This document shows, piece by piece, positions 172-52,885 of a DNA stretch of 52,885 bases. This DNA comes from a virus. Taxonomy: Duplodnaviria; Caudoviricetes. The notes under the pieces were generated by a model, which searched no databases, had not been told where the DNA came from, and worked only from the letters and a program-made list of their open reading frames with translations. Location: positions 1 to 52,885 of the IMG/VR virus record IMGVR_UViG_3300033144_005399. One strand, written 5' to 3'. The first letter of the stretch is position 1; the number at the start of each line of letters is the position of its first letter. A program made the translations under genes and the position numbers.

Positions 172-1761
172 ATGTCAGATCGCGATCGGCTCCACAAGGC
201 ACCCAGCTTCGGTACTCCGGGGCTGGGTGTTCCTGCGACGAAGGAGTCATCGCGCTGGCACACCGGCGGGCCCGGTCACTTCCCGAGCTACAGCTCCATG
301 AAGCTGCGCGCGCTCGGGCGCTCGGGCATGGGCGAGCTGCAAGCGCTCACCATCGCGGTGAACAAGCTCTTCCGCACGGAAGACGAGTTCGGCCGCCCGC
401 CTCCGCACGTCATCACGGTCGAGGATGTGACGCGCGGCATCGTCATCGACCCGGTGGATCAGGAGAAGATTCAGCAGCTCGTTACGAACACCAGTGCGCA
501 CTTCGATCAGAAGTCGCAGACCCAGCGGCTCTTCCACGCGCGCGGCCGGCTGACCGAGGTGCTACGACATTCGTACAAGCACATCGAATCGGATACTCGC
601 ATGGAACTGGTGAGGCGTGCGGTAGCCTACTGGAAGCGCAATGGGCAGACGGACTACGGCAAGGACCCCACGGTTCGGTGGAGGAAGAGCATGAGGCTCG
701 TGATCCCAAGGCAGCGCAGCGCGCTTCACAAGGCGCTGTTCATCGGACCTCGCGGTGGTAAGTGGGCCGATGCGAAGCACACCATCCCGTGGGGGGAGCA
801 ACACGGGAAGAAGCCACGCCGGAAGCCTTCCGGGGGAGCGAAGAAGCTGCCTCGGAAGTTGGCTTTGGAGTCGCGGAACATCGACCTCCATCTGGCATCG
901 CTCAGCCGCAAGGGCACGTCCAGCTACACGGAGCGTGATGCGATCCAGATGAAGATGCGCTCTCTGTACAAGCGCAGAAAGGAGATCCGGCAGCAGTCCG
1001 GCGCGCGTGATCTGAGCGAGTTCGAAGCGATGGTCGCCAGAGGGGCGCTGAAGAAGAAGAAGCCGACGCACGGCGAGGAGGCTCGGCGTGCGCGCGCGAA
1101 GGCAGCGGAGGCACATCCTGATTTCCACGCAGCGATCGAGCAGGGCCGAGTGCAGGGCGACCTACTGCATCACGTCCACACCGCGAAGACCTTCCTCGCC
1201 GCTCACCGCGCAACGCTCCCCGCTCTCATGAACGTCATCAACGAAGCCGCGCCTCCGGGCGCGAGGGTACAGAGCCGCGTCAAGACGTTGGAGAGCACGC
1301 TCGGCAAGTTGGTGCGCAAGACGAAGTACGCCGACGCGACGAAGCTGCAAGACGCGACGGGTGTGCGAATCGTGTGCGGCACCATCGACGAGGTGAAGTC
1401 GACGGTCGCGAAGCTCAGAGCGAAGTACAGGATCATCGAGGAGGACGACTACATCGATTCGCCCGCCCCGGGCGACTACCGGTCGCACCATCTGATCATC
1501 GAGCACGGCGGCGTCGCGAAAGAGATCCAGATCCGCACGAAGAACCAGCACAAGATGGCGGACTGGACGCACGACATCTACAAGCCGCGCACACCCGAGC
1601 AGGCCGCGGCTGTCGAGCGATATAAGAAGGTGCTGGCCGCGTACTCGAAGCAGGCGGCGGATCACTTCTACAGCGCGGACAAGGGCGAGCATCCCCCCGA
1701 CCCGGACCTGCCGCCCTGTACACCGGTCGTGAAGACAACCCTGGGGTGCCTCGATGCCTGA
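172..1761 (+). CDS. Polyvalent protein with C-terminal RelA/SpoT-family (small alarmone synthetase-like) domain
   Basis: ATG at 172 follows GGAAGG (the track starts at GTG 106). The C-terminus has SRVKTLES, LQDATGVRI, DYRSHHL and EIQIRT, the synthetase motifs of the RelA/SpoT family. It also contains LHKA followed by a GPRGGKWAD tag. Confidence 0.85.
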   Translation: MSDRDRLHKAPSFGTPGLGVPATKESSRWHTGGPGHFPSYSSMKLRALGRSGMGELQALTIAVNKLFRTEDEFGRPPPHVITVEDVTRGIVIDPVDQEKIQQLVTNTSAHFDQKSQTQRLFHARGRLTEVLRHSYKHIESDTRMELVRRAVAYWKRNGQTDYGKDPTVRWRKSMRLVIPRQRSALHKALFIGPRGGKWADAKHTIPWGEQHGKKPRRKPSGGAKKLPRKLALESRNIDLHLASLSRKGTSSYTERDAIQMKMRSLYKRRKEIRQQSGARDLSEFEAMVARGALKKKKPTHGEEARRARAKAAEAHPDFHAAIEQGRVQGDLLHHVHTAKTFLAAHRATLPALMNVINEAAPPGARVQSRVKTLESTLGKLVRKTKYADATKLQDATGVRIVCGTIDEVKSTVAKLRAKYRIIEEDDYIDSPAPGDYRSHHLIIEHGGVAKEIQIRTKNQHKMADWTHDIYKPRTPEQAAAVERYKKVLAAYSKQAADHFYSADKGEHPPDPDLPPCTPVVKTTLGCLDA

Positions 1762-3130
1762 CACGATGATGCTGCGCCTGAACGCGCAACGAGCGATGAC
1801 GCCGAAGGCGGGTGAGGGTTTCAACGTCGTCGGCGTGGACTCCTTCGAGGAGGCGGGTGACGAGCTGTACCTCGTCGCTCACTTCGACACGCGCGTCGAG
1901 GCGGAGCGCAAGGTCGAGTCGTACCAGAAGTCGACGATGGATCGCATTCACATCTACGGGCAGTCGGGGCCCGGTCTGAAGAAGGCGCGCAAGGCGCGCG
2001 GTGGCGCGTACCACGTGCGCATCGTGCTCCCGAGCGGGAAGCTGAAGCACTTCTACGATCGGGGCGCATACGAGCGCTGGTGTGATCGTAACGACATCGA
2101 GCCGCACGTCACTGGCGAAGGCAAGCTGCGCGACGCGGCTGACCGTCGCGGGCACGCGCTGGTATCCGACGGCCCGCCGCAGGCTGCGACATACGGATGG
2201 GACAAGCTGGAGGATGACGTGCCCGGTCCGAAGCCGGGCGCGCGGCGCATGGAGCGGCTTCAGGGGAAGATGACGAACGGTGACTACGCCGCGCTCGGTG
2301 CCGCGTTCATGAGCGCGAAGAAGGAACCAGGCGCGCTACCGCCGCGGCGACCTTCGAGCCATAGCCGAACCCCGACACAAGCCCGCACGTCAGAGCGGGG
2401 CCGGCAGCGCACCGGAGAGCTTCGCGTGCGCCCCGGTGCCCCGCGCCGGAACGAGAACACCGGTAGCGTGTTCGACCGTCGGCACACCCCCTCGCCGGGA
2501 CTCACCCGCCGACACGGCCGTACCGTGTCGAGGCACACTCGGATACCGCACTCGCCGCCGAGAAGGGCCACCGACGTTCATCGCGGGCGCATGAGCGCGC
2601 CGATGATGGATACTGACTTCGCGCAGCTCGGTGCTGCGTTCATGAGCGCGAAGCAGTCGCGTTCCATCCTGCCGACTCGTCGCATGGGCGGGTTGCCGCA
2701 GCGGCTTCGTGATCGTCGCGCGGCTCGTGCGCAGGCGCAGCACGAGCTTCCCAAGACGGGGCAGGCGAAGATGAGCGACTACAATCGCGTGCGTGCGGCG
2801 CAGGCGGGTGAGGGCCGGTCTCGGATGGGCCGTGTCGATCGCTCCCCTCGCCGCTCGCTCGGCCGCACCATTCAGCATGCGACGCCGCGCCATCGGGGGG
2901 ATCGCCCGCCGCCGTCGATGTCGGGTGCCCCGGAGCGTGCGCATCGGCAGCTCCCGTCTGCGCCGCAGCCTCCGCGGAAGAGGAGTAGGACCAAGCCCTT
3001 GGCGACTTCGAGGCGGCTCCATGCGGCCATGGCGCGCTCTGATCTCGTGCGCCCCGATCTGAAGAAGCACACGGAGTCGCAGCTCGTCTACCGCACGCCG
3101 CAGTCGCGCAAGATCAGCCTGGAGTGGTAG
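1754..3130 (+). CDS. Hypothetical Arg/Pro-rich, largely disordered protein with (D/E)(Y/F)AxLGA repeats
   Basis: Overlaps the previous stop and has typical coding codon usage. Contains GKMTNGDYAALGAAFMSAK and GRMSAPMMDTDFAQLGAAFMSAK. Confidence 0.7.
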   Translation: MPDTMMLRLNAQRAMTPKAGEGFNVVGVDSFEEAGDELYLVAHFDTRVEAERKVESYQKSTMDRIHIYGQSGPGLKKARKARGGAYHVRIVLPSGKLKHFYDRGAYERWCDRNDIEPHVTGEGKLRDAADRRGHALVSDGPPQAATYGWDKLEDDVPGPKPGARRMERLQGKMTNGDYAALGAAFMSAKKEPGALPPRRPSSHSRTPTQARTSERGRQRTGELRVRPGAPRRNENTGSVFDRRHTPSPGLTRRHGRTVSRHTRIPHSPPRRATDVHRGRMSAPMMDTDFAQLGAAFMSAKQSRSILPTRRMGGLPQRLRDRRAARAQAQHELPKTGQAKMSDYNRVRAAQAGEGRSRMGRVDRSPRRSLGRTIQHATPRHRGDRPPPSMSGAPERAHRQLPSAPQPPRKRSRTKPLATSRRLHAAMARSDLVRPDLKKHTESQLVYRTPQSRKISLEW

Positions 3131-4223: not shown

Positions 4224-7205
4224 ATGATGGACGCCATCGAGCAGCTCAATCACCTCTTCAAAGCCTTCCCCCCGAAGAAGGGCAAGGATGAGGAGAAGGA
4301 CGCGAAGAGCAAGGGTGGAGACTGCCCGACTTCCGACAAGGATGGCGACGGTACGCCGAACGCGCTCGACGCAGCGCCGGATGACGCGGGCGACGACTCG
4401 ACGGTCGGCGACGAAGAGGGGTTCCCCGAAGAGGGCGACACCTTCGGTGAAGAGGGTGACGAAGAGGGGTTCCCGCCCGAAGAGGGGGACGGCGAGTTCC
4501 CGCCCGAAGAGGGTGGCGGCGAGTTCCCGCCCGAAGAGGGTGGCGGCGGGATGGATCCGGCGACGGTCGAGCTGGTCGAGCAGCTCGCGGCGGCGGAGAA
4601 GGATTTCTACGCGGCGAAGGGGATGCACGGTCCCGATCACCACAAGGCCGAGATGGCGATGGAGGTGTTCCACAAGCTCGTGCGCAAGCTCGCGAAGCAG
4701 GTGCATCCCAACGTCGGCAAAGAACAGCCGATGGACAACGGCGAAGAGGGCAACGGTGCGCCTCCCTTCGGTCAGGAAGAGCAGGACAACGGCGGTGGTG
4801 CCAACGGCGACGCATATGGCGGCGCACCCTTCGGCGCGCAGGGTGGCGAGAAGGCCGGATACTCGCAGGACGACGGCGAGCAGGTCGGCGACTACGAGGG
4901 TGGCGAGGACAAAGAGAAGAAGCCCCCGGTCGACAAGGATGAGGTCGTCAAGGAAGCGAAGAAGGCGGGCATGAGCGACGAAGCCATCGAGATGATGGTG
5001 AAGGCGTTGTCGGCGAAACAGGAGATGCTGGAGCCGACGGTCGGCGAGAAGATGAAGGGGAAGATGGAGCCCGACATCGCGAACTACTCGGGCGACCCGA
5101 TGAGCGGCAAGTTCATCGATTGGGCGGGCACGGGTCTCGTCGGGCGCATGAACGAAGCGGACAAGGACGGCAGGCCGAGCGGCATCACCGGCGACAACCC
5201 CTACGAGGGCAGCAACGCAGGCGAGGCGCACCCGCACTACGCCTACAACGAGGGGCCGTTCAGCGGGCAGAAGTTCCCGACCAAGACGCCTGGTCCTCCG
5301 CACGGGAAGATGCACGCGAAGGTCGTGACGCCGAGCGACGTCGTGACGCCGAGCGACATGCAGGGCAAACAATACGCGGCGGGCGCCGGTCTCAGGATGC
5401 GCCCGAGCGCCGGCCCCGGTCCGAAGCAGCCGACGACGCAGCAGCGCGGCTTTCGTCCCGCCAACAAGCCGTCGCGCGCGGCGACGCTGCGGGGTCGCAT
5501 GAGCGAAGAGCCGAGCGGCGGCGAGTACGCAGCGCTCGGCGCGGCGATGCGGAGGGATACTCCTCCGGGTCCTCCGTTCAGCGCGAAGCAGAGCGGCTCG
5601 CGCGCAGCGCACGGGCCTTCGCATGCGTCGGGCCGCGCTGGCGGTCCTACGGCGAGCGTGCCGAAGCCGACGACGGGTGGGCGCACGATCAGCGGGCGCG
5701 ACTTCGAACGCACCGCGACGACGATGGTGCGGCGCGGTGCGGGAGTACGCCAGCTCCGCGACAAGTTTCACGGGCCTTCGCAGGCGTACCGTCGCCGGCC
5801 CCGCACGCAGTCAACGGCGTCGATGCATCCCGGTCTGCGTGGTCGCATGAGCGAGGGCATGGAGTTCGTCGAGCTGGGCGCGAAGATGCGCGGTGCCATG
5901 GAAGGCCCGCATGAGCGCCGTCCGAAGCCGCACGCCCGCCCGCCGCGCAGGACGCTCGGGTACGCGACGGCTGCGCGCGAGGCGGCGAGCGACGCTATCG
6001 ATCGTGTCCGGGGGTACGGTGACGCGGGTCCGAAGCGGTCGACGACGGCGCAGAAGAAGAACCCCCCCGGATCGCCGGGTCGTCCTGGGGGATCGAGCGA
6101 GCTGGGCGACCCGTATGCGAGCATGCACGGTAAGCAGCACCACGGGCCTGCCGCGCCGACCCCCGTCAAGACTGGCGGCGGCGGGCCGAGGATCGGGATG
6201 GGCGGTGCGCCTACCAACAGGGGCACGAAGCAGCCCGCGATCGGAGTGCACGGTCGGAGCCGCATGCCTCCGGGGCGCAAGCGCGTCCACGGCGGCGGCA
6301 CGGGTCCCAACCGGGGCCGTCCGCGCGTCGGACCGATCACGGTGCGGCGTATCCCGCACGCGAGCATGCGCGGGAAGATGGTCGTCGAGGCTCCGCACGG
6401 GCTCGACTACGCGCACCTCGGTGCGATGATGCGCGACCAGGATACCGGTCCGAAGCCGCAGTCCCCGAGCGGGGGCAAGCCTCCGATGTCGGGCGCGATG
6501 GACGACCCGGGTCCCAAGCGCGTCTCGCACCGTCAGACGTGGCCGCTGACGGGAAAGCCGGAGACGTCGTTGTCGGGGCAGATGACCGGCAAGCGGACTG
6601 GCGAGCGCCGGCCCGGCACGTTCGGGAGCGCTGGCTCCCAGAAGCCGAAGAAGCAGCACGGGGCGCGTCCTCGCCCCCCGTCTCCGCCTCCGCCCGAGCG
6701 CCCCGATGCTGGTCCGAAGAAGGTGGGTCGGGGACGCAGGCGCGGCCCCAACTGGGCTGAGCGGGCGGGCGTCGGCGTTACGCCCCGCCAGCGGCGCGCG
6801 GCACCGGCGAACGCGCGCGGTCGCGATCGGGCCATTCGGGCGCTGGACCCTGCCGACCGGTCGGCGACCTCGCTGGGCCGGGGGTTCGGTCCTTCTGCCG
6901 TGCGGGCCGTGGTGAGGGCGGGTGCGGCGGCCGGCGGGCCGCAGCGTCAGGGAAGGGCTCCCCACCATGCCGGACCGAAGACTGCGCGCGCGAAGATGAG
7001 CGCGAAGCAGACGGATACCCCTGGGTACGTGCGGCATTCGCCCGAGCAGTACCGGAGCGTGGCCGAGCACATGGTCCCGCGGTCGCCTCCCCCGAGGGCC
7101 GGGCGGAAGCGTGTGCACGGCGGCGGTGTCAGCGCGAAGATGAGCGAGGAGCCCCAGGGCCACGAGTACGCCGCGCTCGGTGCGTTCATGCGGCAGGGCC
7201 GTTAG
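4224..7205 (+). CDS. Large disordered protein (~990 aa): acidic N-terminal third, basic Arg/Pro/Gly-rich remainder
   Basis: AGGAG at 4216-4220 favours ATG 4224/4227 over GTG 4188. N-terminus MDAIEQLNHLFKA. Four (G/A)(K/R)M...(Y/F)xxLGA repeats. Confidence 0.8.
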   Translation: MMDAIEQLNHLFKAFPPKKGKDEEKDAKSKGGDCPTSDKDGDGTPNALDAAPDDAGDDSTVGDEEGFPEEGDTFGEEGDEEGFPPEEGDGEFPPEEGGGEFPPEEGGGGMDPATVELVEQLAAAEKDFYAAKGMHGPDHHKAEMAMEVFHKLVRKLAKQVHPNVGKEQPMDNGEEGNGAPPFGQEEQDNGGGANGDAYGGAPFGAQGGEKAGYSQDDGEQVGDYEGGEDKEKKPPVDKDEVVKEAKKAGMSDEAIEMMVKALSAKQEMLEPTVGEKMKGKMEPDIANYSGDPMSGKFIDWAGTGLVGRMNEADKDGRPSGITGDNPYEGSNAGEAHPHYAYNEGPFSGQKFPTKTPGPPHGKMHAKVVTPSDVVTPSDMQGKQYAAGAGLRMRPSAGPGPKQPTTQQRGFRPANKPSRAATLRGRMSEEPSGGEYAALGAAMRRDTPPGPPFSAKQSGSRAAHGPSHASGRAGGPTASVPKPTTGGRTISGRDFERTATTMVRRGAGVRQLRDKFHGPSQAYRRRPRTQSTASMHPGLRGRMSEGMEFVELGAKMRGAMEGPHERRPKPHARPPRRTLGYATAAREAASDAIDRVRGYGDAGPKRSTTAQKKNPPGSPGRPGGSSELGDPYASMHGKQHHGPAAPTPVKTGGGGPRIGMGGAPTNRGTKQPAIGVHGRSRMPPGRKRVHGGGTGPNRGRPRVGPITVRRIPHASMRGKMVVEAPHGLDYAHLGAMMRDQDTGPKPQSPSGGKPPMSGAMDDPGPKRVSHRQTWPLTGKPETSLSGQMTGKRTGERRPGTFGSAGSQKPKKQHGARPRPPSPPPPERPDAGPKKVGRGRRRGPNWAERAGVGVTPRQRRAAPANARGRDRAIRALDPADRSATSLGRGFGPSAVRAVVRAGAAAGGPQRQGRAPHHAGPKTARAKMSAKQTDTPGYVRHSPEQYRSVAEHMVPRSPPPRAGRKRVHGGGVSAKMSEEPQGHEYAALGAFMRQGR
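4491..4544 (+). repeat. 27-bp tandem duplication encoding GEFPPEEGG, with a degenerate third copy just upstream
   Basis: GGCGAGTTCCCGCCCGAAGAGGGTGGC occurs at 4491-4517 and 4518-4544. Confidence 0.9.
5322..5357 (+). repeat. 18-bp tandem duplication encoding VVTPSD x2
   Basis: GTCGTGACGCCGAGCGAC occurs twice in tandem. Confidence 0.9.
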
Positions 7206-7207
7206 TC

Positions 7208-8620
7208 ATGGAGAAGAGCATGGACGCGATCGACGCACTCGAAAGTCTCAGCAAGGGCGGCCCGTATGTCGGCCCCAAGGGCGGTCTGTGGGCCGACGCG
7301 AAGCACACGGTTTCGTGGAGCGACCGCAAGTCGAAGAAGCGGAAGTCGAAGGGCAAGGGTATCCGCGAGATCAAGACCCGCACGAAGAGCCACGGCAAGG
7401 GGATCACCGAGGTCATCAAGCTCGGCTCGAAGCGCGACATCGAGGAGAAGACGCTCCCCGCGTGGACGGGCGAGAAGAAGGGTACCTCGCGCCGCTACAA
7501 GGGCCCCGAGGGCGGGCTCCCTACGCCGAGCAAGGGACATCCGGTCGAGGACGCACCCGTGGGGGACGAAGGTCCCCAGACGCTGCGTCGCTTCAAGGGG
7601 CCGGCGGGTGTCTCGCCCGACACCAAAGAGGCGTACCTGGAGCGCTTCATGGGGACCGGCAAGGGCATCGACTTCGGCGGAGGTCCGGGGGGCTCGGGAG
7701 AGCCGGGCGTCCTGCGGCGCGACAAGGGCCCGGGGCGCAAGCCCTTCCCCTGGCAGACGGGACCGAAGGCGTCGAAGCCGCACTTTCTGGAGCGTGGGGA
7801 AGTGCCGCCGCCGCACACGCGCGAGAGTGCTCAGGCGCAGTACGACCGAGCACAGGAGTCAGCCGGCCGTGCGTACAAACGCAAGTACCGGAAGAGCATC
7901 GATGCGGAGGGGCGTCCGCTGATCAAGGGCGGTCTCTACAGCTTCCGCGATCCCCACGACGGCAAGGCGAGGCTGCTGCCGGCCGCGTACCTGTTCGACT
8001 ACCTGTGCGCGTTCGTCTGCGAGGCGTATGAGCACGAGGTCACGGAGCCCGCGCACAAGTTCACGAACGTGCGCGATCTGCCGACGACGATGGCCCGCGC
8101 GATCATGGGCGAGCTGGTCGTGAGGATGACGAAGGACACGAACCTTCGGCGCGCGTGCCAGAAGTTCAAGTGCACCGTCGACACGATCGCGACGCTGCTC
8201 GTGAAGAAGAACATCCTGAAGACGCACAGCGACGCGATGCCGACCGACAGCGACAGCGCCGCCGCGATGGGCGCAGGCATGCTCTCCGAGGCCGAGGTGA
8301 TGGCGTACAGCAAGCCGTCGCCGTGGATGCAGAAGAGCGACTCGCACGTGCACATCGGTGTGGGCCGGCTCGTCGACCGCACGCCCGAGAACCTCGCACA
8401 CACGCTGATCGACGACTCGCAGGATCCTCACGCGCTCGTGCGCAAGAGTATCCGTGACTCGGTGGTCGAGCACGGCTCGCAGCTCGCCCACCCGGAGGAG
8501 GTCGCGGTGACGCGCTCGGCTGACTGCCCGGTGCACGCGCGCGAGATACACAAGGCGATGAACCTGTGGAACCCGATGGGACCGTGCACGTGTGGCGCGG
8601 AGCCCAACCCATACGGCTGA
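7208..8620 (+). CDS. Hypothetical head-associated protein with an N-terminal LSKG+GPKGGLWAD tag and a C-terminal Cys/His cluster
   Basis: Begins MEKSMDAIDALESLSKGGPYVGPKGGLWADAKHTVSW. Ends with CPVH...CTC, a possible metal site. Lies directly upstream of the portal. Confidence 0.8.
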   Translation: MEKSMDAIDALESLSKGGPYVGPKGGLWADAKHTVSWSDRKSKKRKSKGKGIREIKTRTKSHGKGITEVIKLGSKRDIEEKTLPAWTGEKKGTSRRYKGPEGGLPTPSKGHPVEDAPVGDEGPQTLRRFKGPAGVSPDTKEAYLERFMGTGKGIDFGGGPGGSGEPGVLRRDKGPGRKPFPWQTGPKASKPHFLERGEVPPPHTRESAQAQYDRAQESAGRAYKRKYRKSIDAEGRPLIKGGLYSFRDPHDGKARLLPAAYLFDYLCAFVCEAYEHEVTEPAHKFTNVRDLPTTMARAIMGELVVRMTKDTNLRRACQKFKCTVDTIATLLVKKNILKTHSDAMPTDSDSAAAMGAGMLSEAEVMAYSKPSPWMQKSDSHVHIGVGRLVDRTPENLAHTLIDDSQDPHALVRKSIRDSVVEHGSQLAHPEEVAVTRSADCPVHAREIHKAMNLWNPMGPCTCGAEPNPYG

Positions 8621-8623: not shown

Positions 8624-10795
8624 ATGGGGCTTTACGAGGACATCCGAGGAGCGACAGGCACTGGGCTGACGAGGCTCGGCGACTGGATGGCGGGAAGCGA
8701 CGACGACGTTTCCAAATCGGACATGAACGAGGTGCTCGCGAAGTCGGGCATGGGTCTGCCCGATCCGACTGAAGAGAAGCCCCGCGCTCTATTTCATGAT
8801 CCGTATTCGGTCATGGATTGGGGAGGCTGGCGACAGCGACCGTCGTCGCTGACGTATGAGACGCTGCGGCAGATGACGACGAGCAACACGGTCATCGCCG
8901 CGATCCTCAATCTGCGCATTCACCAAGTCGGTGCGTTCTGCCGACCGCAGCAAGGTAAGTACGACCGCGGATACCGAGTCATCCTCCGCGACCGGCGCGA
9001 CCAGAAGAAGGCGATGACGCCGGGCGAGCAGAAGGAAGCGGACGCCATCGAGCGCATGCTGGAGTCGACGGGCATGATGCTCCCCGACGAGCGCCCGAGC
9101 GACCGCGACAACTTCCGCTCGTTCAGCAAAAAGTCTGTGCGCGATGTGCTCACGTATGACCAGTGGTGCTTCGAGAAGATCCGCGACCGCAAGGGACGCG
9201 TGTCGCGCTTCATCGCGCTGCCTTCCGAGACCATCCGGCCGGCGGTATCCGACATCGAGCACATGGACCCGGCCGAGATCCGCAACCGCGTGTCGCACGT
9301 GCAGGTCTACGAGAACACCGTCATCGCGGAGTTCGCATCCGATGATCTCGCGTGGTGCGTGATGAACCCGCGCAGCGACCTGCGCACGAACGGTTTCGGC
9401 TTCAGCTTCACCGAGCAGATCGTTCGGCTCGTCACGTCGTGGCTGTTCGGCTTCGAATACAACACGAAGTTCTTCACGCAGGGCTCAGCGATCAAAGGAC
9501 TGCTCAACATCAAGGGCGCGATCCCCGATCGTCAAATGCGAGCTTTTCGTCGAATGTGGTACTCGCAACTTGCGAGCATACAGAACGCCTGGAAAACGCC
9601 GATCCTGAACTCCGACGACATCCAGTGGGTATCCATGCACTCGGCAAACCGAGAGATGGAGTACGCCGCCTGGATGGATTGGTTGTGCTTGGGAGGCGAT
9701 TCGGTCATCACTACCGAGAACGGCAACTTGCCCCTGCGCGAGCTGGTCGGCCAAGAGTTCCGAATCTGGGATGGCGACGGATACCACGCAGCGCGCGCGG
9801 TCGAGACGGGCGTGCGCGAGATCGCGATGACGAAGCTGTCCAACGGCTCCGAGCTTCGGTCTTCCCCGGAGCATCTGTTCCGCGTCCGGGTCGAGGGCGT
9901 TGTGGATTGGGTAGCGCAGAAGGATCTCGTACAGGGCGACGAGGTGCTGCTCGACCCGAAGACGGCGACGCCCGACGAGACCGAGTACCCCACGGCTGTC
10001 GTGGTCGAGGCGTGGCAAACGGGGCAGAGCGAGTCGATGTTCGACGTCGAGGTGTTCAACGATCGGCATCTGTTCTTCGCGAACGGAATCGCGGTCCATA
10101 ACACGAAGCTCATCTGCGCCGTGTTCGGCATCGACCCCGTGGAGATCAACTTCATCTTCGGCGGCGGAGGATCGGCCGGCGGCGGAAGCGCGATGTTCGA
10201 TCGCCGACCGAATGCGGCCGAGGTCACCGAGAGCAAGGACAAGGGCCTGCGTCCGCTGCTCACGCACATGGAGGACCACCTCAACCAGCACATCGTCTGG
10301 GATATGAATCCCGACTTCGAGTTCTCGTGGACGGGCTTCGACGCGGCGGCTGAAGCGGTCGAGCGCGAGGCGCGCATGACCGAGGTCACGAGGGTGAAGA
10401 CGGTCAACCAGATCCGCGCGGAGATGGATGAGCCCCCTCTCCCGGGCAAGCTCGGCGACCTGATTCTCGACCCGACCTTCTTCCAGTGGATGATGGCTCA
10501 GGAGGCCGCACAGCAGGAAGGCGGCGAGATGGGCGGCGAGATGGGCGAGGGCGGGCCCCCTGGAGCGCCTGGAGCGCCCCCGGGTGGCGCGGAGCCTCCC
10601 ATGGGCCCGACGCCTGTGGCGGCCGCTGAGGGCGGCGCTGAGGACGACGAAGAGGACTTCCTTCAGGGCATGCACCCCGGTGTCGACGACGACGACGACC
10701 ACGACGACCTGCTCGCAGCGAGCTACACGGTCATCGAGCAGACCGAGGACGTGCTACGGAAGAGCTGGTACGACGGCGATCTGGACGGAGGATAA
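8624..10795 (+). CDS. Phage portal protein interrupted by a mini-intein
   Basis: Portal-like motifs (VRDVLTYDQ, LPSETIR, NPRSD..NGFGFS, FFTQGS..KGLLNI, NAWKTPI, CAVFGIDPVEINF, SKDKGLRPLL, KTVNQIRAE) of the SPO1/Twort type. Acidic C-terminal tail. Confidence 0.92.
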   Translation: MGLYEDIRGATGTGLTRLGDWMAGSDDDVSKSDMNEVLAKSGMGLPDPTEEKPRALFHDPYSVMDWGGWRQRPSSLTYETLRQMTTSNTVIAAILNLRIHQVGAFCRPQQGKYDRGYRVILRDRRDQKKAMTPGEQKEADAIERMLESTGMMLPDERPSDRDNFRSFSKKSVRDVLTYDQWCFEKIRDRKGRVSRFIALPSETIRPAVSDIEHMDPAEIRNRVSHVQVYENTVIAEFASDDLAWCVMNPRSDLRTNGFGFSFTEQIVRLVTSWLFGFEYNTKFFTQGSAIKGLLNIKGAIPDRQMRAFRRMWYSQLASIQNAWKTPILNSDDIQWVSMHSANREMEYAAWMDWLCLGGDSVITTENGNLPLRELVGQEFRIWDGDGYHAARAVETGVREIAMTKLSNGSELRSSPEHLFRVRVEGVVDWVAQKDLVQGDEVLLDPKTATPDETEYPTAVVVEAWQTGQSESMFDVEVFNDRHLFFANGIAVHNTKLICAVFGIDPVEINFIFGGGGSAGGGSAMFDRRPNAAEVTESKDKGLRPLLTHMEDHLNQHIVWDMNPDFEFSWTGFDAAAEAVEREARMTEVTRVKTVNQIRAEMDEPPLPGKLGDLILDPTFFQWMMAQEAAQQEGGEMGGEMGEGGPPGAPGAPPGGAEPPMGPTPVAAAEGGAEDDEEDFLQGMHPGVDDDDDHDDLLAASYTVIEQTEDVLRKSWYDGDLDGG
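9686..10102 (+). mobile_element. Mini-intein (139 aa, no homing endonuclease) in the portal
   Basis: Starts CLGGDSVITT, has block B SSPEHLF and block F MFDVEV..HLFFANG, ends VHN followed by Thr. Removing it rejoins WMDWL/TKLICAVF. Confidence 0.92.
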
Positions 10796-11566: not shown

Positions 11567-13255
11567 GTGGAAGAGACGCCGCAGGGGGTACAGCACGAGG
11601 TACCAGCGGACGACCGGCTTCGGAAAGCGACCGGTGAAGATCGGACGTTCGACACGCACCCCGCGATGTCGGAGCTGCACACCGCTGTCGGCATCGCGTA
11701 CAAAGCGCAGTTCAAGCGCATGCTGGAAGTCATCGAGGAGTACGTGGATCGCGTCGTACTGCTGCGCCCCGGTCCGCATCTGTTCACGCCGACCGACTTC
11801 GAAAAGATCCGCAGCATCATTCGCGACTTCCATCTCGCGTTCGTCATCGGCGTGGTGCATCCCGAAGCCGCAGCTCCTCGCATCGTTCAGGGGCTCATCG
11901 ACAAGGGGATACTGCCGAGCGATCTCGCCTTCACGTTTCAGCCGCCCTCGCCGCGCGTGCTGCCGCCGCAACGGCTGAGCCTCATCGACACCAGCTTCGA
12001 GTACGGGCGCTCGCTGCTTCCGTTGCGCGAGCACCGACGCGCACCGTCTGACGAGTCGCTCGTGCAGTTCGAAGCGCGACGCCCGGTGCCTCTGTCGATC
12101 GAAGAGCGGGCGGCGCGCGATTGGGCGCGCATGAGCGCGGCGACGCACATCACCGGTCTCGGTGATCGGTTCTCTGGGGACTTCACAACGCGTGCGGTCG
12201 AAGAGGACCGTGCGCAGCGGAAGCGCTACGAGAAGGTCGTGCGCGAAGCCGTCTCGACCAGTGCCAAAAAGCGAACGAGCTGGCGTTCCATCGCGAGTGA
12301 GATCGGGCAGAAGACCGGCGACTGGTCGCGCAACCTCGGCCGCATCGCGGCGACGGAATCGCAGGGCGCGATGCAGGCGGGTATCGTCGAAGGGCTGAAG
12401 AAGCGCGAGCAGAAGAAGCCCGAGGAGATCTATGTCGCGAAGCAACCGGCCCCTGACGCGTGCGACGACTGCGTGCGGCTGCATCTCGTTGGCGCGACGC
12501 GAGGCGCACCGCCGCGGATCTTCAAGCTCAGCGATTTGGAAGCGAACGGGACGAACATCGGGAAGACGCGCCCAGCCTGGCAAGCCGTCGTCGGCGCGAC
12601 CCACCCGTGGTGCGGGTGCGACCTAGTGCACGTGCCCGAAGGCTGGATGTTCGATGCGGACGGCAGCCTCGTGCCCGAGTTCATGACCCGCTCCGGGTAC
12701 CTGGAATCCGATCTGCGCAAAGCGATGGACATGACCTACGGCGACGCGGTGCCGCTGCACGGTATCTCGGTGCGCGTCGGTGACCCGACGGTGCGCGAAG
12801 AGATCGAGCGCATCATCGCGATCACACCGCGCGAGGTCTTCGACAAGCGCGTCGGCGTGACGTTGGTGACGACTGACATCCCGCGCGTGCAGAACCCGCT
12901 CGAAGAGCATGACTTTGCGTATTGGACTGCGAACGAGATCCGGCTCATGAACAATCTGCCCGCGGGGAAGATCGAGCGCGTGCTGCCGCACGAGATCGGG
13001 CACTCTCTGAACGTGTACCTCATGAACCAGCTCGGCGGAGTGAAGCCCGTGCGTGCGTGGCATGACAAGCTGTGGAAGATCAGCCAAGAGGAGGGCTTCG
13101 TCAGCGACTACGCGAAGAAGCTGCCGATCGAGAACGCTGCCGAGGTCACGATGCTCTACCTCTACAACCGTGCGCGGCTCATGGTCGTGTTCCCGCGACA
13201 GTTCGCGTTCGTCCACAAGGCGTACCGCGCCATCTTCAGGAAGAAGGCGGCGTGA
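11567..13255 (+). CDS. MuF-like head morphogenesis protein fused to a C-terminal HExxH zinc metallopeptidase
   Basis: RIAATE, ACDDC and THPWCGC are MuF-like. After DLRKA come HEIGH and VSDYAKK..ENAAE (zincin, lethal-factor-like). Start is uncertain (GTG 11567 or a downstream ATG). Confidence 0.8.
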   Translation: MEETPQGVQHEVPADDRLRKATGEDRTFDTHPAMSELHTAVGIAYKAQFKRMLEVIEEYVDRVVLLRPGPHLFTPTDFEKIRSIIRDFHLAFVIGVVHPEAAAPRIVQGLIDKGILPSDLAFTFQPPSPRVLPPQRLSLIDTSFEYGRSLLPLREHRRAPSDESLVQFEARRPVPLSIEERAARDWARMSAATHITGLGDRFSGDFTTRAVEEDRAQRKRYEKVVREAVSTSAKKRTSWRSIASEIGQKTGDWSRNLGRIAATESQGAMQAGIVEGLKKREQKKPEEIYVAKQPAPDACDDCVRLHLVGATRGAPPRIFKLSDLEANGTNIGKTRPAWQAVVGATHPWCGCDLVHVPEGWMFDADGSLVPEFMTRSGYLESDLRKAMDMTYGDAVPLHGISVRVGDPTVREEIERIIAITPREVFDKRVGVTLVTTDIPRVQNPLEEHDFAYWTANEIRLMNNLPAGKIERVLPHEIGHSLNVYLMNQLGGVKPVRAWHDKLWKISQEEGFVSDYAKKLPIENAAEVTMLYLYNRARLMVVFPRQFAFVHKAYRAIFRKKAA

Positions 13256-27402: not shown

Positions 27403-27416
27403 CATTCCTGAGCATC

Positions 27417-29045: not shown

Positions 29046-29087
29046 TCCGGTCGGCGCACCAACGAATCGAACGGAAGGAATAGGAAC

Positions 29088-30506: not shown

Positions 30507-30531
30507 ACGTAGCGACACACGCTGGTAGGAT

Positions 30532-30565: not shown

Positions 30566-30581
30566 GCTAAGGGAGATACCG

Positions 30582-32782: not shown

Positions 32783-32786
32783 CGCC

Positions 32787-33692: not shown

Positions 33693-34453
33693 GCTTGTGG
33701 GGTAAGTCGCTGCTCGACGCGTGGCGTCTCTTCGGGGACGGCAAGCTGGGCCAAGAGATCACGGCGAAGAATCTCTACCGCTGGACCACGAAGATCGGCG
33801 ACGTGGTGGTGGATGACGGCGAGTACACGTTTTTCGAGTACCTCTTTCCGCGGGCTCTCGTCGGCATGTGGGGTCTGTTTGATTTGGTGATCGCGTTGGC
33901 GATTCTGGACTGCGAGCTGTCCGTGGACCGGCAGCGCACGTGGGACATGCTGCACGTGGGCGCAGGGTCGGGCCGCCTCACGAGCGCCGTCTCCTCATGG
34001 AAGGCGCCGCTCCGGTGCTACTCCATCGACAACGACCCCAGCGCGATCACGCTCATGGAGGCGCGCGACGTTCCGTGCGAGTGGATGGACGCGCACGACA
34101 TGAGCGCGTTCGCCGACGACAGCTTTCCCCTCGTCGTGATCTCATTCTGGATGATCAGTCAGAGCACGGACATCGAGACCCTGATCGCGGAATGTGCGCG
34201 CGTCGCGTCCGAGAAGGTGATCGTGGCCGGTTGGTTCGCCAAGGGGCTCGGGCACGAGAGGCCCGTCAAGGTGGTCGAAACGATGACCGACTGGCAGGGC
34301 AACACGGAGGACTACTCGACTACGGCGTGGCATCGAGATCACGTACTCAGGCTGTTCGCGGCAGAGTCGATGAAGCCTACGGTAACGCGGACTTTTCTGA
34401 CGTTGGATGCTAAGCCCGACGAAATCTCATGGCTCGTAGAGGTAGGGTTCTAG
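33689..34453 (+). CDS. Class I SAM-dependent methyltransferase
   Basis: ATGA overlap. MLHVGAGSG (motif I), YSIDND, MDAHDM..FADDSFPLVV and ECARV. Confidence 0.8.
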   Translation: MSLWGKSLLDAWRLFGDGKLGQEITAKNLYRWTTKIGDVVVDDGEYTFFEYLFPRALVGMWGLFDLVIALAILDCELSVDRQRTWDMLHVGAGSGRLTSAVSSWKAPLRCYSIDNDPSAITLMEARDVPCEWMDAHDMSAFADDSFPLVVISFWMISQSTDIETLIAECARVASEKVIVAGWFAKGLGHERPVKVVETMTDWQGNTEDYSTTAWHRDHVLRLFAAESMKPTVTRTFLTLDAKPDEISWLVEVGF

Positions 34454-34454
34454 T

Positions 34455-36236: not shown

Positions 36237-36325
36237 CGGCGAGCGGAGGCAGTGACTTGGGTGACAACGGAACAGGGCAGCATCGTCTCCCCGGTTACGT
36301 GGACGACGAGCAGAGGAGCAAGCCG

Positions 36326-36820
36326 ATGAGGAAACAGCGCGACTCTGATCCGGTGCCCGCGCATCTGAAGAAGACGAAGGCGGTCGTCGACTTCCTAAAG
36401 TACGTGATCGCGCTCGTCATCGGGATCGCTGCGCTCGGGTGGATGGGGCACGAGTACATCGGGCAGTTCCAGACCACGGAAGAGGCGGAGGCGGCAGCGA
36501 CGGCTGTGGCAATCGAGCGCGCTTCATCGCACGAGCATGTGCAGATCGCGATCGACGAGAACGGTGACGCGATCAGGAACGTGCGCATCCACGGCGTGCG
36601 CATCGAGCTAGAGCAGCGGAGCACGAACGATCGCCTCGACCAGCTCCTCGCGCTCCAGAGGGCGGATACCCGTGCGGAGCGCCGCGATGCAGAGCGCCGT
36701 GTCGATGAGCTTCAGCGCCGCATCGAGCGCCGCGAGCGCGTCATCCGAAACCCGGTCGCCTTGCAGCGGGTGGCGGATCAGGTCGAGGATGATCCACTAT
36801 CAGGGCTGGACGGACTATGA
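36326..36820 (+). CDS. Single-TM, coiled-coil membrane protein (possibly lysis-related)
   Basis: GAGGAG RBS. Hydrophobic FLKYVIALVIGIAALGWMG followed by a charged helical region. Confidence 0.6.
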   Translation: MRKQRDSDPVPAHLKKTKAVVDFLKYVIALVIGIAALGWMGHEYIGQFQTTEEAEAAATAVAIERASSHEHVQIAIDENGDAIRNVRIHGVRIELEQRSTNDRLDQLLALQRADTRAERRDAERRVDELQRRIERRERVIRNPVALQRVADQVEDDPLSGLDGL

Positions 36821-40720: not shown

Positions 40721-43006
40721 ATGGCAACCGCGATTTTCTTCAACGGGCGGCGGATCAACGTCCCCCAAGCGGTCAGTGAGATCGACGCTTCCGCGTTGGC
40801 GGCCGTGTCGCCTTCAGCGGTCGGCATCGTCGCGCTCCTCGGCACGGCCGAGGGTGGCAAACCGCTCGACGCGTGCGAGGAGTTCGCTGACTCCACGCGC
40901 TCGGACTCGCTGCGCAACAAGTATCGGTCCGGCGACCTGCTGACGGCCGGTCTCTTCGCGTTCGAGCCGAGCGCCGACGACGCGGTTCCCGGCGGCGCGC
41001 AGCGACTTGTCACCGTGAAGGTGAACGACTCTACGCAGTCGATCGCGACGCTGGTCGATGCCGCCGTCGCGGACGCGGTGGATCTGACGTCCAGCGATTG
41101 GGGTCAGTTCACCGAGCAGATCAACATCGACGTCGCGGCGGGCACCGTCCAGGGCAAGCTGATCACGATCATCTTCGAGGACGTCACCGAGACGTTCGAC
41201 GACGTGGGCGGCGACGCGATCATGGACGTGCTCTACACGCCCGGCACCGACGGCTGGGACGTCCCGATGCCTGCTGCCATCGCCGCGCTCGGCTTCACCG
41301 CGACGGGCTCCAAGGCGGAGACCGGGCTCGGCGCGGAGATGACCGCGGTCATCCCCGCGGGTCTTCCCGCAGGGTTGGAGATTCTGAGCGCGGGCGCGGA
41401 GCCCACGCAGCCGACGGTGACCATCTATGGGCTCGTCGGCGTCGTGGCGACGCGTGAGACGCTCACGCTCACCGCTGCCGGTGTGACGGCCGTGCCCACC
41501 GCGTCGCTTCTCTGGGACAAGGTGCTCGGGGCATCCATCTCGGGAACGACGGCGAACACCGTTACGGTGCGCGTTGCTGGCGGTGGTGCGACGGCGCTCA
41601 CCATCGGCGCCGGTGCCGACGGTACGGCCGGTGTCGTGCTCGTCTCGAACGGCATCGCCGCGGGCGTGCTCACGGTCAGCATCGACGTGAACGCTGCGTT
41701 CGACGCCGCGTACTTCGGCATCAACTCAGCGGGCGCCGAGGTGCAGGAGCGCTTCGACATGACGCTCGGCACGACGCCGGTGGTCGGCGTGGTTCCCTTC
41801 GCGGACGTCGATGTCATCGCACTCGGCGACTTCATCGTCGGCCGCACGGTCACCGCGACCCTCACGACGATCAGCGTGCTGGTCGCGACCTTCCCGACGG
41901 TGCAGCGTGTCGTCGATCGGCTGAACGCGCTCGACGGCATCACCGCGAACGCGACGGTCAGCAACCCGACCACGTTCAATCTCGTCGATGCGGACTACGC
42001 AGCCGCCGCGGACATCACCACGCCCGCGCAGGAATACTACGCGGACCTCTACGAGTTCATCACCGCGATCAACGAGGGCAGCCAGTACATCGACGCCGCA
42101 CGTGCGACGGCCGCGTCGGCAGTGCCCGCGAATCTCGCGGCTCCGGTGTTCCTCGCGGGGGGTACCGAGGGCCCGTCGACCATCACCGAGTGGCAGACGG
42201 CGTTCACGGCGCTTCAGAAGCGTCGCGTGAACATCATCGTGCCGCTCTCGCGCGACCCCGCGGTCCACAGTCTGTGCCTCACGCACCTCGTCGCGCGCGC
42301 CGGCCGGCTCCGCAGCGAAGCGAACGGCTACATCGGTCACGCGGATACTGACCTCGCGGGCACCTCGCTCACGGTCACGAAGAGCGAGATCGTCGCACTT
42401 CAGTCGCGGCACCTCTCGCATCTCGCACAGGAGATTCAGCGCTTCGACGCGGTGACCGGAGAGGCGACGTTCTACTCCCCGTACCACCTCGCCGCCATCT
42501 GCGCGGGCATGCAGGCGGGCAGCGCCATCGGCGAGCCGCTCACGCGCAAGCGTCCCATCGCGACCGACATCCGGCAGGACAGCTCGTGGACGGTCGAGGA
42601 CAACGTGGAGTCGCTCATCGACGCGGGTCTCATGATGTTCGAGAAGATCGACGGCATCGGTATCCGTTGCGTGCGCAGCATCACCGGACATCTCGCCGAC
42701 GACAACCTCGTCTTCACGGAGATGAGCGCGAATGAGTCGGCGAACACCGCGGTGTTCGAGTTCCGCACTGCGCTGGAGCGGAAGATCGGCCAGCGCGCGC
42801 TGGCGGGAACGGCCGCGGCAATCAAGGGTCTCGCGAACGACGTGCTCGGACGTCTCATCGACGACGAGATCATCGTCGCGTACCGCGCGCTTCAGGTGGA
42901 ACAGATCGGGGACGTGTTTCCCGTGAGCGTCGAAATCGCGCCGGTGGTTCCGGTCAACTTCATCCCCATCACGGTGCACCTCGTCGCGCTTCGGACCGCG
43001 GCGTAA
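40721..43006 (+). CDS. Tail sheath protein (761 aa, with insertion domains)
   Basis: GAGGAG RBS. N-terminal IFFNG..VALLGTAEGGKP, LAGGTEG..W, GEPLTRK, LIDAG and C-terminal PVVPVNFI. Confidence 0.93.
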   Translation: MATAIFFNGRRINVPQAVSEIDASALAAVSPSAVGIVALLGTAEGGKPLDACEEFADSTRSDSLRNKYRSGDLLTAGLFAFEPSADDAVPGGAQRLVTVKVNDSTQSIATLVDAAVADAVDLTSSDWGQFTEQINIDVAAGTVQGKLITIIFEDVTETFDDVGGDAIMDVLYTPGTDGWDVPMPAAIAALGFTATGSKAETGLGAEMTAVIPAGLPAGLEILSAGAEPTQPTVTIYGLVGVVATRETLTLTAAGVTAVPTASLLWDKVLGASISGTTANTVTVRVAGGGATALTIGAGADGTAGVVLVSNGIAAGVLTVSIDVNAAFDAAYFGINSAGAEVQERFDMTLGTTPVVGVVPFADVDVIALGDFIVGRTVTATLTTISVLVATFPTVQRVVDRLNALDGITANATVSNPTTFNLVDADYAAAADITTPAQEYYADLYEFITAINEGSQYIDAARATAASAVPANLAAPVFLAGGTEGPSTITEWQTAFTALQKRRVNIIVPLSRDPAVHSLCLTHLVARAGRLRSEANGYIGHADTDLAGTSLTVTKSEIVALQSRHLSHLAQEIQRFDAVTGEATFYSPYHLAAICAGMQAGSAIGEPLTRKRPIATDIRQDSSWTVEDNVESLIDAGLMMFEKIDGIGIRCVRSITGHLADDNLVFTEMSANESANTAVFEFRTALERKIGQRALAGTAAAIKGLANDVLGRLIDDEIIVAYRALQVEQIGDVFPVSVEIAPVVPVNFIPITVHLVALRTAA

Positions 43007-51626: not shown

Positions 51627-51629
51627 CCG

Positions 51630-52885
51630 ATGCCGATTTTTCAACCACGCAACAGGGTCCAGATTCTCCGCGAGATGGTCGCACGCACCATCGCACGCTC
51701 GCGTCTCGTCGGGCTCACTCGGAACTCGACCGTGTTCCACGCGCTCTCGGGCGCGGCGAACGAAGACGCCGAGCAATATTTCCAGATGGCTCGCCTGCGC
51801 GAGCTGTTTGCGATCGATCGCGCGACCGGCTCCGACCTCGACGAACGCGCCGCCGAGATCGTGCCCAACATCATCGTGCGCCGTGGCGCGCTGCACGCCA
51901 GCGGCACGGTCGTCTTCAGTCGGCCGGGTGTCGTGGGCACTGTCACGATCCCGGTGGGGTCGCAGGTCGCTGCCAGCGACGCGGACGGCGACATTCGCTT
52001 CCGCACGACGTCGGCCGGATCCATCCCCGCCGCGTCTACGGTATCCGGTGCCATCGACGTCATCGCGACTGAGGCGGGGATCCGCGGCAACGTCGAGGCG
52101 GCGGATATCGTCAAGCTCATCACCCGCATCCCCGGCGTGACGGGTGTGGCGAATGCAGCGAAGTACAGCAACGGTGCGGACCGCGAGAGCGACCAGAACT
52201 TCCGCGCTCGACTGAAGGCGTTCGTGCAGGCGATCAGCCGCGGCACGCCGACCGCGCTAGAAGCATTCGCGCGCAACGTGATCCTGAACGATGGCCGTCG
52301 CGTGATCTTCGCGAAGGACGTCGAGCCGGTGGTCGCGACCGGGCAGTCGGAGCTGTTCATCGATGACGGCACCGGCAGCGTGGAGGAGTACAGCTCCGAG
52401 TTCATCGCAGGCGCGGATACCTTCCTCGCGGCCGCGCTCGGTGGCGAGACCGAGCTGTTCACGACCTCGCGCCCGATTCGCGATGACGGATCGTTCGCGA
52501 TGGAGGTGGATACTCTTCTGGACGCGCCCAGCTTGGGCGCGGGCTTCGTCACGATCGTGCGCGGCACAGACTACGAGCTGAACTCGGCGAGGGGACAGAT
52601 CGAGCTGCTGAGCGGCGGCGCAGTTCCGGTGATGTTGGTCGGCTACGGCGCGCGAGCGAACTACCGGTACTACACCGGGCTCATCCAAGAGACGCAGCGG
52701 ATCATCGACGGCGACCCTGCGACGCCCACGCGCCGACCGGGCGTGCGCGCGGCGGGCACGACGGTGTTCGTCAAGGCACCGGCCACGGTGTTCCAGAGCG
52801 TCGCCGGTGGCGTCTCGGTGCTTCCTGACTTCGACACCGTGGCCGTCGGCAACGAAGTCGAGAGCGCGGTGCAGGACTACATCAA
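51630..52885 (+). CDS. Baseplate J-like wedge protein (truncated at window end; absent from the ORF track)
   Basis: Translated by hand from ATG 51630: MPIFQPRNRVQILREM..ATGSDLDERA..ASGTVVFSR..TIPVGS..GIRGNV..NGADRESDQNFRARL..ISRGT. Confidence 0.88.
   Translation, partial: MPIFQPRNRVQILREMVARTIARSRLVGLTRNSTVFHALSGAANEDAEQYFQMARLRELFAIDRATGSDLDERAAEIVPNIIVRRGALHASGTVVFSRPGVVGTVTIPVGSQVAASDADGDIRFRTTSAGSIPAASTVSGAIDVIATEAGIRGNVEAADIVKLITRIPGVTGVANAAKYSNGADRESDQNFRARLKAFVQAISRGTPTALEAFARNVILNDGRRVIFAKDVEPVVATGQSELFIDDGTGSVEEYSSEFIAGADTFLAAALGGETELFTTSRPIRDDGSFAMEVDTLLDAPSLGAGFVTIVRGTDYELNSARGQIELLSGGAVPVMLVGYGARANYRYYTGLIQETQRIIDGDPATPTRRPGVRAAGTTVFVKAPATVFQSVAGGVSVLPDFDTVAVGNEVESAVQDYI

Follow-up and report, generated by a model that had tools for sequence, protein, structure and literature searches.

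Positive selection for a non-palindromic heptamer, GGATACY, on both strands of an uncultured phage contig

Avoidance of short words, among them restriction sites and protospacer-adjacent motifs (PAMs), is a familiar trait of phage genomes. Here we describe a word that accumulates instead, the non-palindromic heptamer GGATACY (Y, C or T), in a single 52,885-bp virus contig (Caudoviricetes; IMG/VR record IMGVR_UViG_3300033144_005399), which was analysed at its full length and is called the window throughout. Among described iterated words, the DNA uptake sequences (DUS) and uptake signal sequences (USS) of the Neisseriaceae and Pasteurellaceae are chromosomal and competence-linked, and occur equally on both strands, evenly spaced and in all coding frames, at about one per kb in lineage-specific dialects. 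Like them, GGATACY is equally frequent on the two strands, spaced more regularly than chance would give, located in coding DNA and subject to dialects, but it is a 7-nt word with weak flanks whereas the uptake sequences have a core of 9–12 nt. The stoperators of cluster A mycobacteriophages, of which there are ~25–35 per genome, are read by the immunity repressor and share with GGATACY a lineage-specific consensus and dozens of asymmetric sites running through genes; their consensus co-evolves with a protein of the phage. They are 13 bp long, however, and oriented with transcription, whereas GGATAC is divided 37/39 between the strands although all genes of the window lie on the + strand. Asymmetric hexamers methylated at the fifth A are typical targets of bacteriophage exclusion (BREX) systems, and GTATCC, the complement of GGATAC, is presumably the BciVI site. 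Like GGATACY, the targets of Type IIS, IIG, III and BREX enzymes are non-palindromic words of 6–7 bp with one degenerate position and adenines on both strands; in phages such methyltransferase targets are normally avoided or neutral, whereas GGATACY is enriched 4- to 17-fold and our searches found no enzyme for it.

The nearest analogue, in our view, is the highly iterated palindrome HIP1 (GCGATCGC) of cyanobacteria. The model for it predicts that sites accumulate to a density of roughly one per kb and that a second site close to the first adds little, as is observed here. In the portion of PMC4390886 drawn on here, HIP1 and its alternates are over-represented at ~1 per kb, each with its cognate methyltransferase; it has been proposed that saturation follows from methyl-directed repair that weakens ~1000 nt from a site, and Elhai (2015) allows that the over-representation may be an epiphenomenon. 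Both HIP1 and GGATACY are short words occurring about once per kb across coding DNA and replaced by other words in some lineages. HIP words are nevertheless palindromic, GC-rich and chromosomal, with an identified cognate methyltransferase, whereas GGATACY is non-palindromic, contains a TA step and sits in a phage with no enzyme found. Among phages, LLS carries 23 Chi sites (one per 1.86 kb) and MD8 carries 32, with orientations of 20:3 and 32:0 and clustering near one end, and Chi enrichment is concluded to mark phages without recombination genes of their own (PMC12315714, in the part used here). Chi in these phages is also a short asymmetric word, enriched many-fold by selection on DNA to a comparable density, but it is oriented, end-clustered and the host's own word, whereas GGATACY is split 37:39 and evenly spaced, with RecA encoded by a probable member of its lineage. 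The nick sites of T5, phiKMV and tf lie on one strand only, number 4–14 per genome and have a consensus of at least 9 bp, and co-evolution of nickase and site has been proposed between tf and LUZ24 (PMC3517423, in the part used here). They share with GGATACY a phage-specific asymmetric consensus and a proposed co-evolution with an enzyme between related phages, and differ from its array in number (76 sites), length (7 bp) and strand (37/39). Restriction-modification sites that are over-represented reach about 1.4–1.5-fold, without explanation, in the part used of PMC4687349. Supplements aside, we found in the literature no orientation-symmetric non-palindromic phage word so enriched, the others being enriched ~1.4–1.5-fold, oriented (Chi) or palindromic (HIP1).

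GGATAC occurs at 76 sites in the window (37 on the + strand and 39 on the - strand), about one per 696 bp or 1.44 per kb, and 74 of these extend to GGATACY (1.40 per kb). The base that follows on the + strand is C at 22 sites and T at 15, GGATACG and GGATACA both being absent from that strand. Outside the heptamer the flanks are weak (C at position -1 in 45/76, G after Y in 40/76), leaving a core of 7 nt. An initial annotation, made from the letters alone, had counted these sites by hand and noted the missing GGATACG on the + strand; its counts were reproduced exactly, the absence was confirmed and all 11 of its example coordinates appear in the site lists (Table 1).

No simple model of the sequence predicts this number. 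GGATACY is expected 4.30 ± 1.98 times in dinucleotide-preserving shuffles (maximum 10; 0/100 reach 74), and 9.6, 4.0, 5.2 and 8.9 times under Markov models of orders 0, 1, 2 and 3; for GGATAC sites the expectation under orders 1–3 is 10–18. Permuting synonymous codons within genes, which preserves every protein and the codon usage of each gene, gives 21.1 ± 4.0 GGATAC and at most 34 in any of 1000 shuffles, and 1000 codon-order shuffles give 21.0 and at most 36. The annotation had named codon- and dinucleotide-preserving shuffles as the test of its claim, and their expectations, 21 and 4.3, are nowhere near ~70. The codon shuffles are moreover conservative nulls, since the rare codons that they reuse (GTA, ATA, GGA, GAT, ACT) are partly owed to the word. 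Among all hexamers GGATAC has the highest enrichment against the synonymous shuffle (76 vs 20.8, z 13.5). Markov models of orders 4 and 5, also suggested by the annotation, do return 52–71, but this match is circular, since the word itself supplies most copies of its own sub-words (76/84 GGATA and 76/100 GATAC). One-mismatch neighbours of GGATAC mostly fall under expectation (GGACAC 13 vs 30.5, CGATAC 6 vs 21.2), a depletion that spans all six positions and not one. The enrichment is real, and composition, codons and proteins do not account for it.

Synonymous sites, in the shuffles above and in the pair and opportunity counts below, bear out the earlier suggestion that selection acts on the DNA rather than on the proteins. 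Sites fall in all six frame/strand classes (24, 18, 14, 8, 7 and 5). Asp-Thr pairs preceded by G are written GAT-ACY in 23/28 cases, whereas those without a preceding G use GAC in 37/39 and GAT in 2/39; the pair count yields 23 motif-forming pairs where the frame/strand tally has 24 sites in that frame. Although 56% of Thr codons are ACG, this codon appears in 0/23 of the motif-forming pairs; ACT, at 5.8%, appears in 7/23. Y at the seventh position thus belongs to the word. Val-Ser pairs read GTA-TCC in 14/76 (GTA and TCC are 5.5% and 11.6% of their codons). The proteins are mostly not bent to the word, since the dipeptides concerned are no commoner than amino-acid content predicts (Asp-Thr 67 vs 72.9, Gly-Tyr 40 vs 39.7, Val-Ser 76 vs 64.9). 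With the proteins unchanged, there is room for GGATACY or its complement at 195 places, of which 72 are used (37%) against 9.5 expected from codon usage, and the used share climbs with codon cheapness (12/56, 12/43, 23/48 and 25/48 from costliest to cheapest). The capsid gene is site-free, sits in the second-largest gap (28603–30890) and uses none of its five synonymous opportunities (29313, 29933, 30173, 30373 and 30399). We conclude that GGATACY is a positively selected word at the DNA level, brought near to saturation and limited by codon cost.

The spacing of the sites, which the annotation had proposed to compare with random placement, is non-random. Gaps range from 67 to 2926 bp with a coefficient of variation of 0.75, against 0.99 under random placement (P = 0.004), and the evenness holds after conditioning on opportunity positions (P 0.009) and when these are weighted by codon cost (P 0.005). 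The median distance to a site is 137 bp for unused opportunities, and the median distance from a site to its nearest neighbour is 360 bp; a site added beside an existing one seems to bring little gain. Along the contig, + and - sites follow one another at random (43 runs vs 39.0 ± 4.3 expected), and spacing within a strand is no more regular than with random labels (P 0.85). Orientation looks irrelevant, and the pattern fits reading of the duplex and, less well, separate coverage of each strand. Strand symmetry had been taken to argue against a classical Chi or nick site, and the comparison with published phages agrees, the ratio being 37:39 here against 20:3 and 32:0 in the Chi-rich phages and one-stranded placement of nick sites.

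Four further contigs from other assemblies share the enrichment. G009 (16.2 kb) has 21 GGATACY (11/10) against 0 for the reversed control; by synonymous shuffle the count is 21 vs 9.3 (maximum 16 in 200). The 17.4-kb contig of L107, a locus found through a terminase alignment, has 23 (10/13) against 2 for the reversed control; by synonymous shuffle L107 has 21 vs 10.3 (maximum 17 in 150), with Y in 21/21 sites of the retrieved part. The 7.2-kb contig of L059 has 10 (4/6) against 0, and L187, an 8.3-kb contig from a metagenome scan, has 8 against 1.56 expected (0/200 shuffles reach 8). L187 probably belongs to the lineage of the window, the assignment being by motif alone. It carries a RecA-family recombinase and a Mre11/SbcD-like phosphoesterase (5968–7089 and 7390–8274) beside a family A DNA polymerase, a gene set that suggests recombination machinery of the phage's own. 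Between the window and the relative L001 (76–80% nucleotide identity) 9/17 aligned sites persist, including one that is shifted by a base in the alignment, and each of the two holds private sites; with the more distant L107, 3/8 aligned sites are kept. From this partial retention and the private sites it follows that density is maintained while individual sites turn over. Searches for more of the lineage with the left-end open reading frame (ORF) and with RecA as queries found nothing, and a polymerase alignment in viral contigs yielded no GGATACY-rich locus.

Other relatives of the window favour other words. GGATACY occurs 1, 4 and 9 times in the complete relatives G001, G002 and G003, whose genomes are 100–109 kb. 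In G001 and its near-twin G008, GAWTC (W, A or T) is found 461 times against 194 expected (z 28) and GASTC (S, G or C) is depleted (158 vs 225), and by synonymous shuffle GATTCC and GATTAC are enriched (204 vs 76 and 69 vs 33). GATC is enriched against the synonymous shuffle in G002 and G003 (1018 vs 789 and 1016 vs 783, z 13–14), with no Dam-family gene detected in either. L007 favours TCGATA (26 vs 8.1 by synonymous shuffle), L109 CCGATA (28 vs 7.1), L133 GACAAT (42 vs 18.5, preceded by C in 38/42), L134 and L141 AGGATA (20 vs 9.3 and 19 vs 7.7) and L122 TGCGGA (85 vs 37.5, strand-biased 59:26). A GAT(A/T) core that includes a TA step is common to most words of the sister lineages. We limit the claim of different words to these relatives, since others are weak by the synonymous null and gene calls are partial, with a coverage of 48–89% at most loci; L075, at 17%, was not counted. 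More distant relatives, with terminases ~40% identical, have strong words of their own (L122, L124 and L126, TGCGGAA-like and strand-biased; L133, CGACAAT), and word-level positive selection may be widespread in the broader group. A gammaproteobacterial metagenome-assembled genome (MAG) contains a related contig (L038/G010) whose phage has no strong word; the MAG has 584 GGATACY against 404 of the control. GATTAC was considered as an enriched word of the window as well and dropped, a Markov model giving 10 vs 1.9 but the synonymous shuffle 10 vs 15.1.

The window has a CheckV completeness estimate of 53%, so that ~47% of the genome is missing. It is 65.2% GC, and on the + strand G exceeds C and A exceeds T; the convincing genes all lie on that strand and ~97% of the contig is covered (Table 1). 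No tRNA genes were found in the window, and a DNA search of it against cultured phages gave no match. The closest cultured relatives by protein are remote, at 35% identity for the capsid (Herelleviridae-like) and 31% for the terminase, and such identities give no clue to the host. Judged by the size of the complete relatives, the gene content and the distant cultured kin, the window is one half, head to baseplate, of the ~100-kb genome of an uncultured myophage.

Table 1. Predicted genes and GGATAC sites in the 52,885-bp window
Feature	Position	Strand	Remark
RelA/SpoT-domain protein	1–1761	+	open at left end
Portal	8624–10795	+	
1929-aa protein with InPase domain	13258–19047	+	
2476-aa protein with HExxH motif and SNF2 helicase	19348–26778	+	
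Head protease	27417–28127	+	
SU10-type major capsid protein (SU10_MCP)	29088–30506	+	
Endonuclease VII-like gene	30582–31076	+	downstream of capsid gene
Hint-domain protein	32787–33692	+	within 31438–36820 block
Methyltransf_11 methyltransferase, small-molecule type	33695–34453	+	within 31438–36820 block
Tail-tube initiator			among the recognisable genes
Baseplate J			open at right end
GGATAC array	591–52514	both	76 sites, 74 GGATACY
GGATAC, site starts	591, 2541, 2608, 4060, 4857, 5555, 6440, 7013, 8969, 9779, 11907, 15724, 16338, 17291, 18918, 21423, 22446, 24897, 30890, 31791, 32023, 32361, 33364, 34559, 36664, 38003, 39401, 39735, 40711, 42343, 44154, 45719, 46947, 49637, 51023, 52415, 52508	+	
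GGATAC, site starts	2162, 3822, 6349, 7359, 8448, 9245, 9629, 10933, 11383, 14833, 16827, 17592, 18508, 20479, 21179, 22302, 22577, 23369, 24011, 25891, 26849, 27226, 27311, 27632, 28603, 36904, 37446, 38395, 42660, 43833, 45141, 45939, 46622, 47688, 47944, 48862, 49921, 51505, 52041	-	GTATCC on the + strand
Non-Y site	6349–6354	-	reads GGATACG
Non-Y site	21179–21184	-	reads GGATACG; not conserved in relative L001
Non-coding site	27311–27316	-	in 27309–27416, one of few non-coding stretches; L001 has the word at the matching place, with a one-base alignment offset
Site before a start codon	40711–40717	+	between GAGGAG ribosome-binding sequence and ATG of gene 40721–43006

Three very large proteins, those with RelA/SpoT, InPase, and HExxH plus SNF2 helicase domains, are encoded upstream of the portal gene or between the portal and capsid genes; a match to the ATLF domain was below threshold. 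We take them to resemble the 'polyvalent', probably virion-delivered phage proteins. The SNF2 giant was considered as a correlate of the word and rejected: it is present in the wordless G003 and G007 and was not found in G005 as sampled (68% complete; modest enrichment). A recurrent peptide module of ~24–35 aa occurs at 739–792, at 7220–7324 and in five copies in the 1929-aa protein; all copies match a single L107 stretch (10210–10350) at 57–94% identity, and the peptide possibly serves these proteins as a common module for targeting or cleavage. The portal carries a ~139-aa insertion (residues 355–493), whereas the L107 portal lacks it and has the flanks contiguous. Its overlap with a sub-threshold Intein_splicing match (E 5e-4) makes the insertion a probable mini-intein. 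The seven-gene block at 31438–36820, which separates the head module from the tail module, is largely missing from G001–G003, one of its genes (32064–32465) being matched in G003, and the 6 GGATAC sites within it are all on the + strand.

The window also has words that are avoided. The palindromic hexamers CTCGAG, GAGCTC and CGTACG are absent (0 vs 30.8, 28.9 and 21.7 by synonymous shuffle), and GGCGCC (14 vs 46.5) and words containing CCWGG are depleted as well. Based on the avoidance of palindromic hexamers, the DNA of this phage is probably exposed to Type II restriction and not globally hypermodified. GAGCTG/CAGCTC is the second most enriched hexamer of the window (119 vs ~55; 66+/53-) and is enriched in G003 too, whereas in G001 the expectation is 64 and the count 1 (z -9.5); this scarcity suggests a host restriction system in the G001 lineage.

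The explanation we favour, at a probability of roughly 0.35, is that GGATACY is the target of a lineage-specific, methyltransferase-type reader of duplex DNA and is kept at saturating density as a cis-acting mark. The word would be read on duplex phage DNA regardless of orientation by a sequence-specific marking enzyme of the methyltransferase or restriction-modification type, whose gene would lie in the ~47% of the phage genome that was not sampled or in the host. Such a mark would work in cis across ~1 kb, in the manner of strand-discrimination or self-recognition marks, and selection would fill the genome, mostly through synonymous codon choice, until every stretch had a site nearby and then stop. 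We infer the existence of a protein reader, its action by modification and the use made of the mark. A possible parallel comes from G001, whose sole detected DNA methyltransferase (13210–14238) is a beta-class adenine methyltransferase with CcrM, a GANTC enzyme, as its best solved relative. Together with the GAWTC enrichment of that genome it makes one suggestive pairing of enzyme and word.

Several observations weigh against a methyltransferase-type reader. The targets of methylation are usually depleted or neutral in phages, not several-fold enriched. Searches of the window in Pfam, PHROGs, NCBIfam, PDB sequences and the Atlas (39, 20, 4 and 2 of the 40 called ORFs for Pfam, PHROGs, PDB sequence and Atlas, respectively) found no DNA methyltransferase, nickase, recognition-domain nuclease or DNA-binding family. 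The amino-methyltransferase motif IV ([DNS]PP[YFW]) is present in no window protein, and the sole methyltransferase domain there, Methyltransf_11, is of the small-molecule type. PF01555 is missing from the window, G009, G006, G007 and G008 and was seen only in G001 and G003; PF00145 was seen only in G002, and PF02086 in 0/5 genomes searched. Pfam found no DNA methyltransferase in the submitted ORFs of L107 (7) and L187 (7, the polymerase ORF excluded). The pairing seen in G001 is not general, G003 having a CcrM-like enzyme without GAWTC enrichment and G002 being GATC-enriched with no adenine methyltransferase detected. The words that Markov expectations suggested for G006, G005, L004, L110, L114 and L121 are weak or non-significant by the synonymous null (GATTAC in G006, 26 vs 25). 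An enzyme marking one strand only would be expected to space its sites evenly within each orientation, which is not seen. The initial annotation had proposed a positively selected self-mark; the positive selection on DNA stands, while a role in methylation, BREX or packaging is not shown, searches of the window having found no DNA methyltransferase or other reader.

A serious if unlikely competitor is a word dictated by the host, either a Chi-like attenuator of host RecBCD/AddAB or an uptake-like tag, which the phage accumulates and which differs between sister phages as their hosts differ. Uptake sequences are equal on both strands and evenly spaced, as GGATACY is, but they measure 9–12 nt and not 7, and the Chi words known to us are G-rich and lack TA. 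GGATACY is short, asymmetric, lineage-specific, dense and present in all coding frames with a diminishing-returns spacing, all of which suits a host signal, as does the lack of a phage-encoded reader among the window proteins and of PF01555 in five genomes or contigs. Some phages do hoard the Chi of their host (23 sites in LLS and 32 in MD8), but in these the sites are oriented (20:3 and 32:0) and end-clustered (PMC12315714, in the part used), whereas here they are 37:39 in random order. Chi enrichment is tied there to missing recombination genes, yet L187, placed in the lineage by motif alone, has RecA-family and Mre11/SbcD-like genes. None of 401 Pseudomonadota genomes exceeds ~0.33 GGATACY per kb, against 1.40 in the window, and the largest excess over the reversed control is ~4-fold by eye. 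This is a thin sample of one phylum, drawn evenly around our only bacterial handle and including the unpublished G393.

It is also conceivable, though rather improbable, that the sites form an architectural array without chemical mark, serving as nucleation or roadblock sites for a coating, compacting or silencing protein of the stoperator or nucleoid-protein kind. Stoperators are unlike GGATACY in their 13 bp and their orientation with transcription. Indifference to orientation and even coverage would suit a protein that binds duplex DNA, and so would the GAT(A/T) core shared by most sister-lineage words. The capsid gene, presumably the most expressed, is site-free here, and that of G001 lies in an 8.2-kb gap without GATTAC, but the cost of rare codons explains a site-free capsid gene equally well. 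Searches of the window proteins gave no candidate for such a DNA-binding protein, and a 7-bp site would recur hundreds of times in a host chromosome.

Entry points for an enzyme acting on one strand, such as a site-specific nickase of the T5/phiKMV/tf kind, a primase or a replication-restart factor, are improbable. Sites would be needed on both strands as forks or processing run both ways, and one site per ~1.4 kb of each strand is the scale of Okazaki fragments. Primases known to us read trinucleotides, however, and would not need an enriched word. Relatives encode a DnaB-like helicase, a Toprim domain, a family A polymerase and an SbcC-like protein, L187 adds RecA and Mre11-like proteins, and the window has an endonuclease VII-like gene after its capsid gene, but searches of the window yielded no gene for a nickase, an HNH protein or a primase. 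The even spacing within each orientation class that this explanation predicts is not seen. Nickase and site are proposed to co-evolve between tf and LUZ24, yet the nick systems described are one-stranded with 4–14 sites of at least 9 bp (PMC3517423, in the part used), against 76 sites split evenly here.

We consider it still less probable that the word is a functionless by-product of a biased repair or gene-conversion ratchet, by very-short-patch or HIP-type methyl-dependent mismatch repair, that turns near-matches into the word. Elhai's model for HIP1 allows such an epiphenomenon (PMC4390886, in the part used), most one-mismatch neighbours are depleted and sites turn over between relatives. 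The depletion of neighbours at six positions is nevertheless unlike a repair enzyme specific for a single mismatch, and the ancestral states at turned-over sites differ by several varied substitutions. Use of the word tracks codon cost and spares the capsid gene, and the retention of 9/17 aligned sites is higher than the ~0.19 that, by our arithmetic, six neutral positions would show at an identity of 76%. A ratchet would still need a sequence-specific enzyme, and would differ from the methyltransferase-type mark in purpose alone. An origin by editing or deamination was rejected, as 13 GGACAC remain and turned-over sites show several kinds of change. An artefact of composition, codon usage, amino-acid content or assembly is practically impossible: the low expectation of TA words at 65% GC inflates z-scores and Markov orders 4–5 'explain' the count, but those orders are circular, synonymous and codon-order shuffles stop at 34–36 in 1000 around a mean of 21, 39/76 sites lie on the - strand although all genes are on +, and four contigs of other assemblies show the same enrichment.

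Taken across the relatives, we tentatively suggest, as a doubtful generalization, that each lineage of these uncultured ~100-kb high-GC myophages has its own 5–7 bp dialect word (GGATACY, GAWTC/GATTAC, GATC, YCGATA or CGACAAT), evenly spaced, limited by codon cost, blind to orientation and near one per kb. Such words might serve as a phage-borne genome identity or strand-discrimination code with a co-evolving reader, comparable to HIP1, uptake sequences and Chi and yet distinct from all three.

The filling of 37% of the protein-compatible places, in DNA that avoids other words, suggests a strong benefit or a strong drive along the whole DNA. As a marker that needs sequence only, GGATACY can group metagenomic fragments of one phage lineage, and five contigs were picked out by it here. 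If its reader were found, the word would reveal either a new means by which a phage marks or manages its DNA or a signal of the host, likewise new, that is copied by phages.

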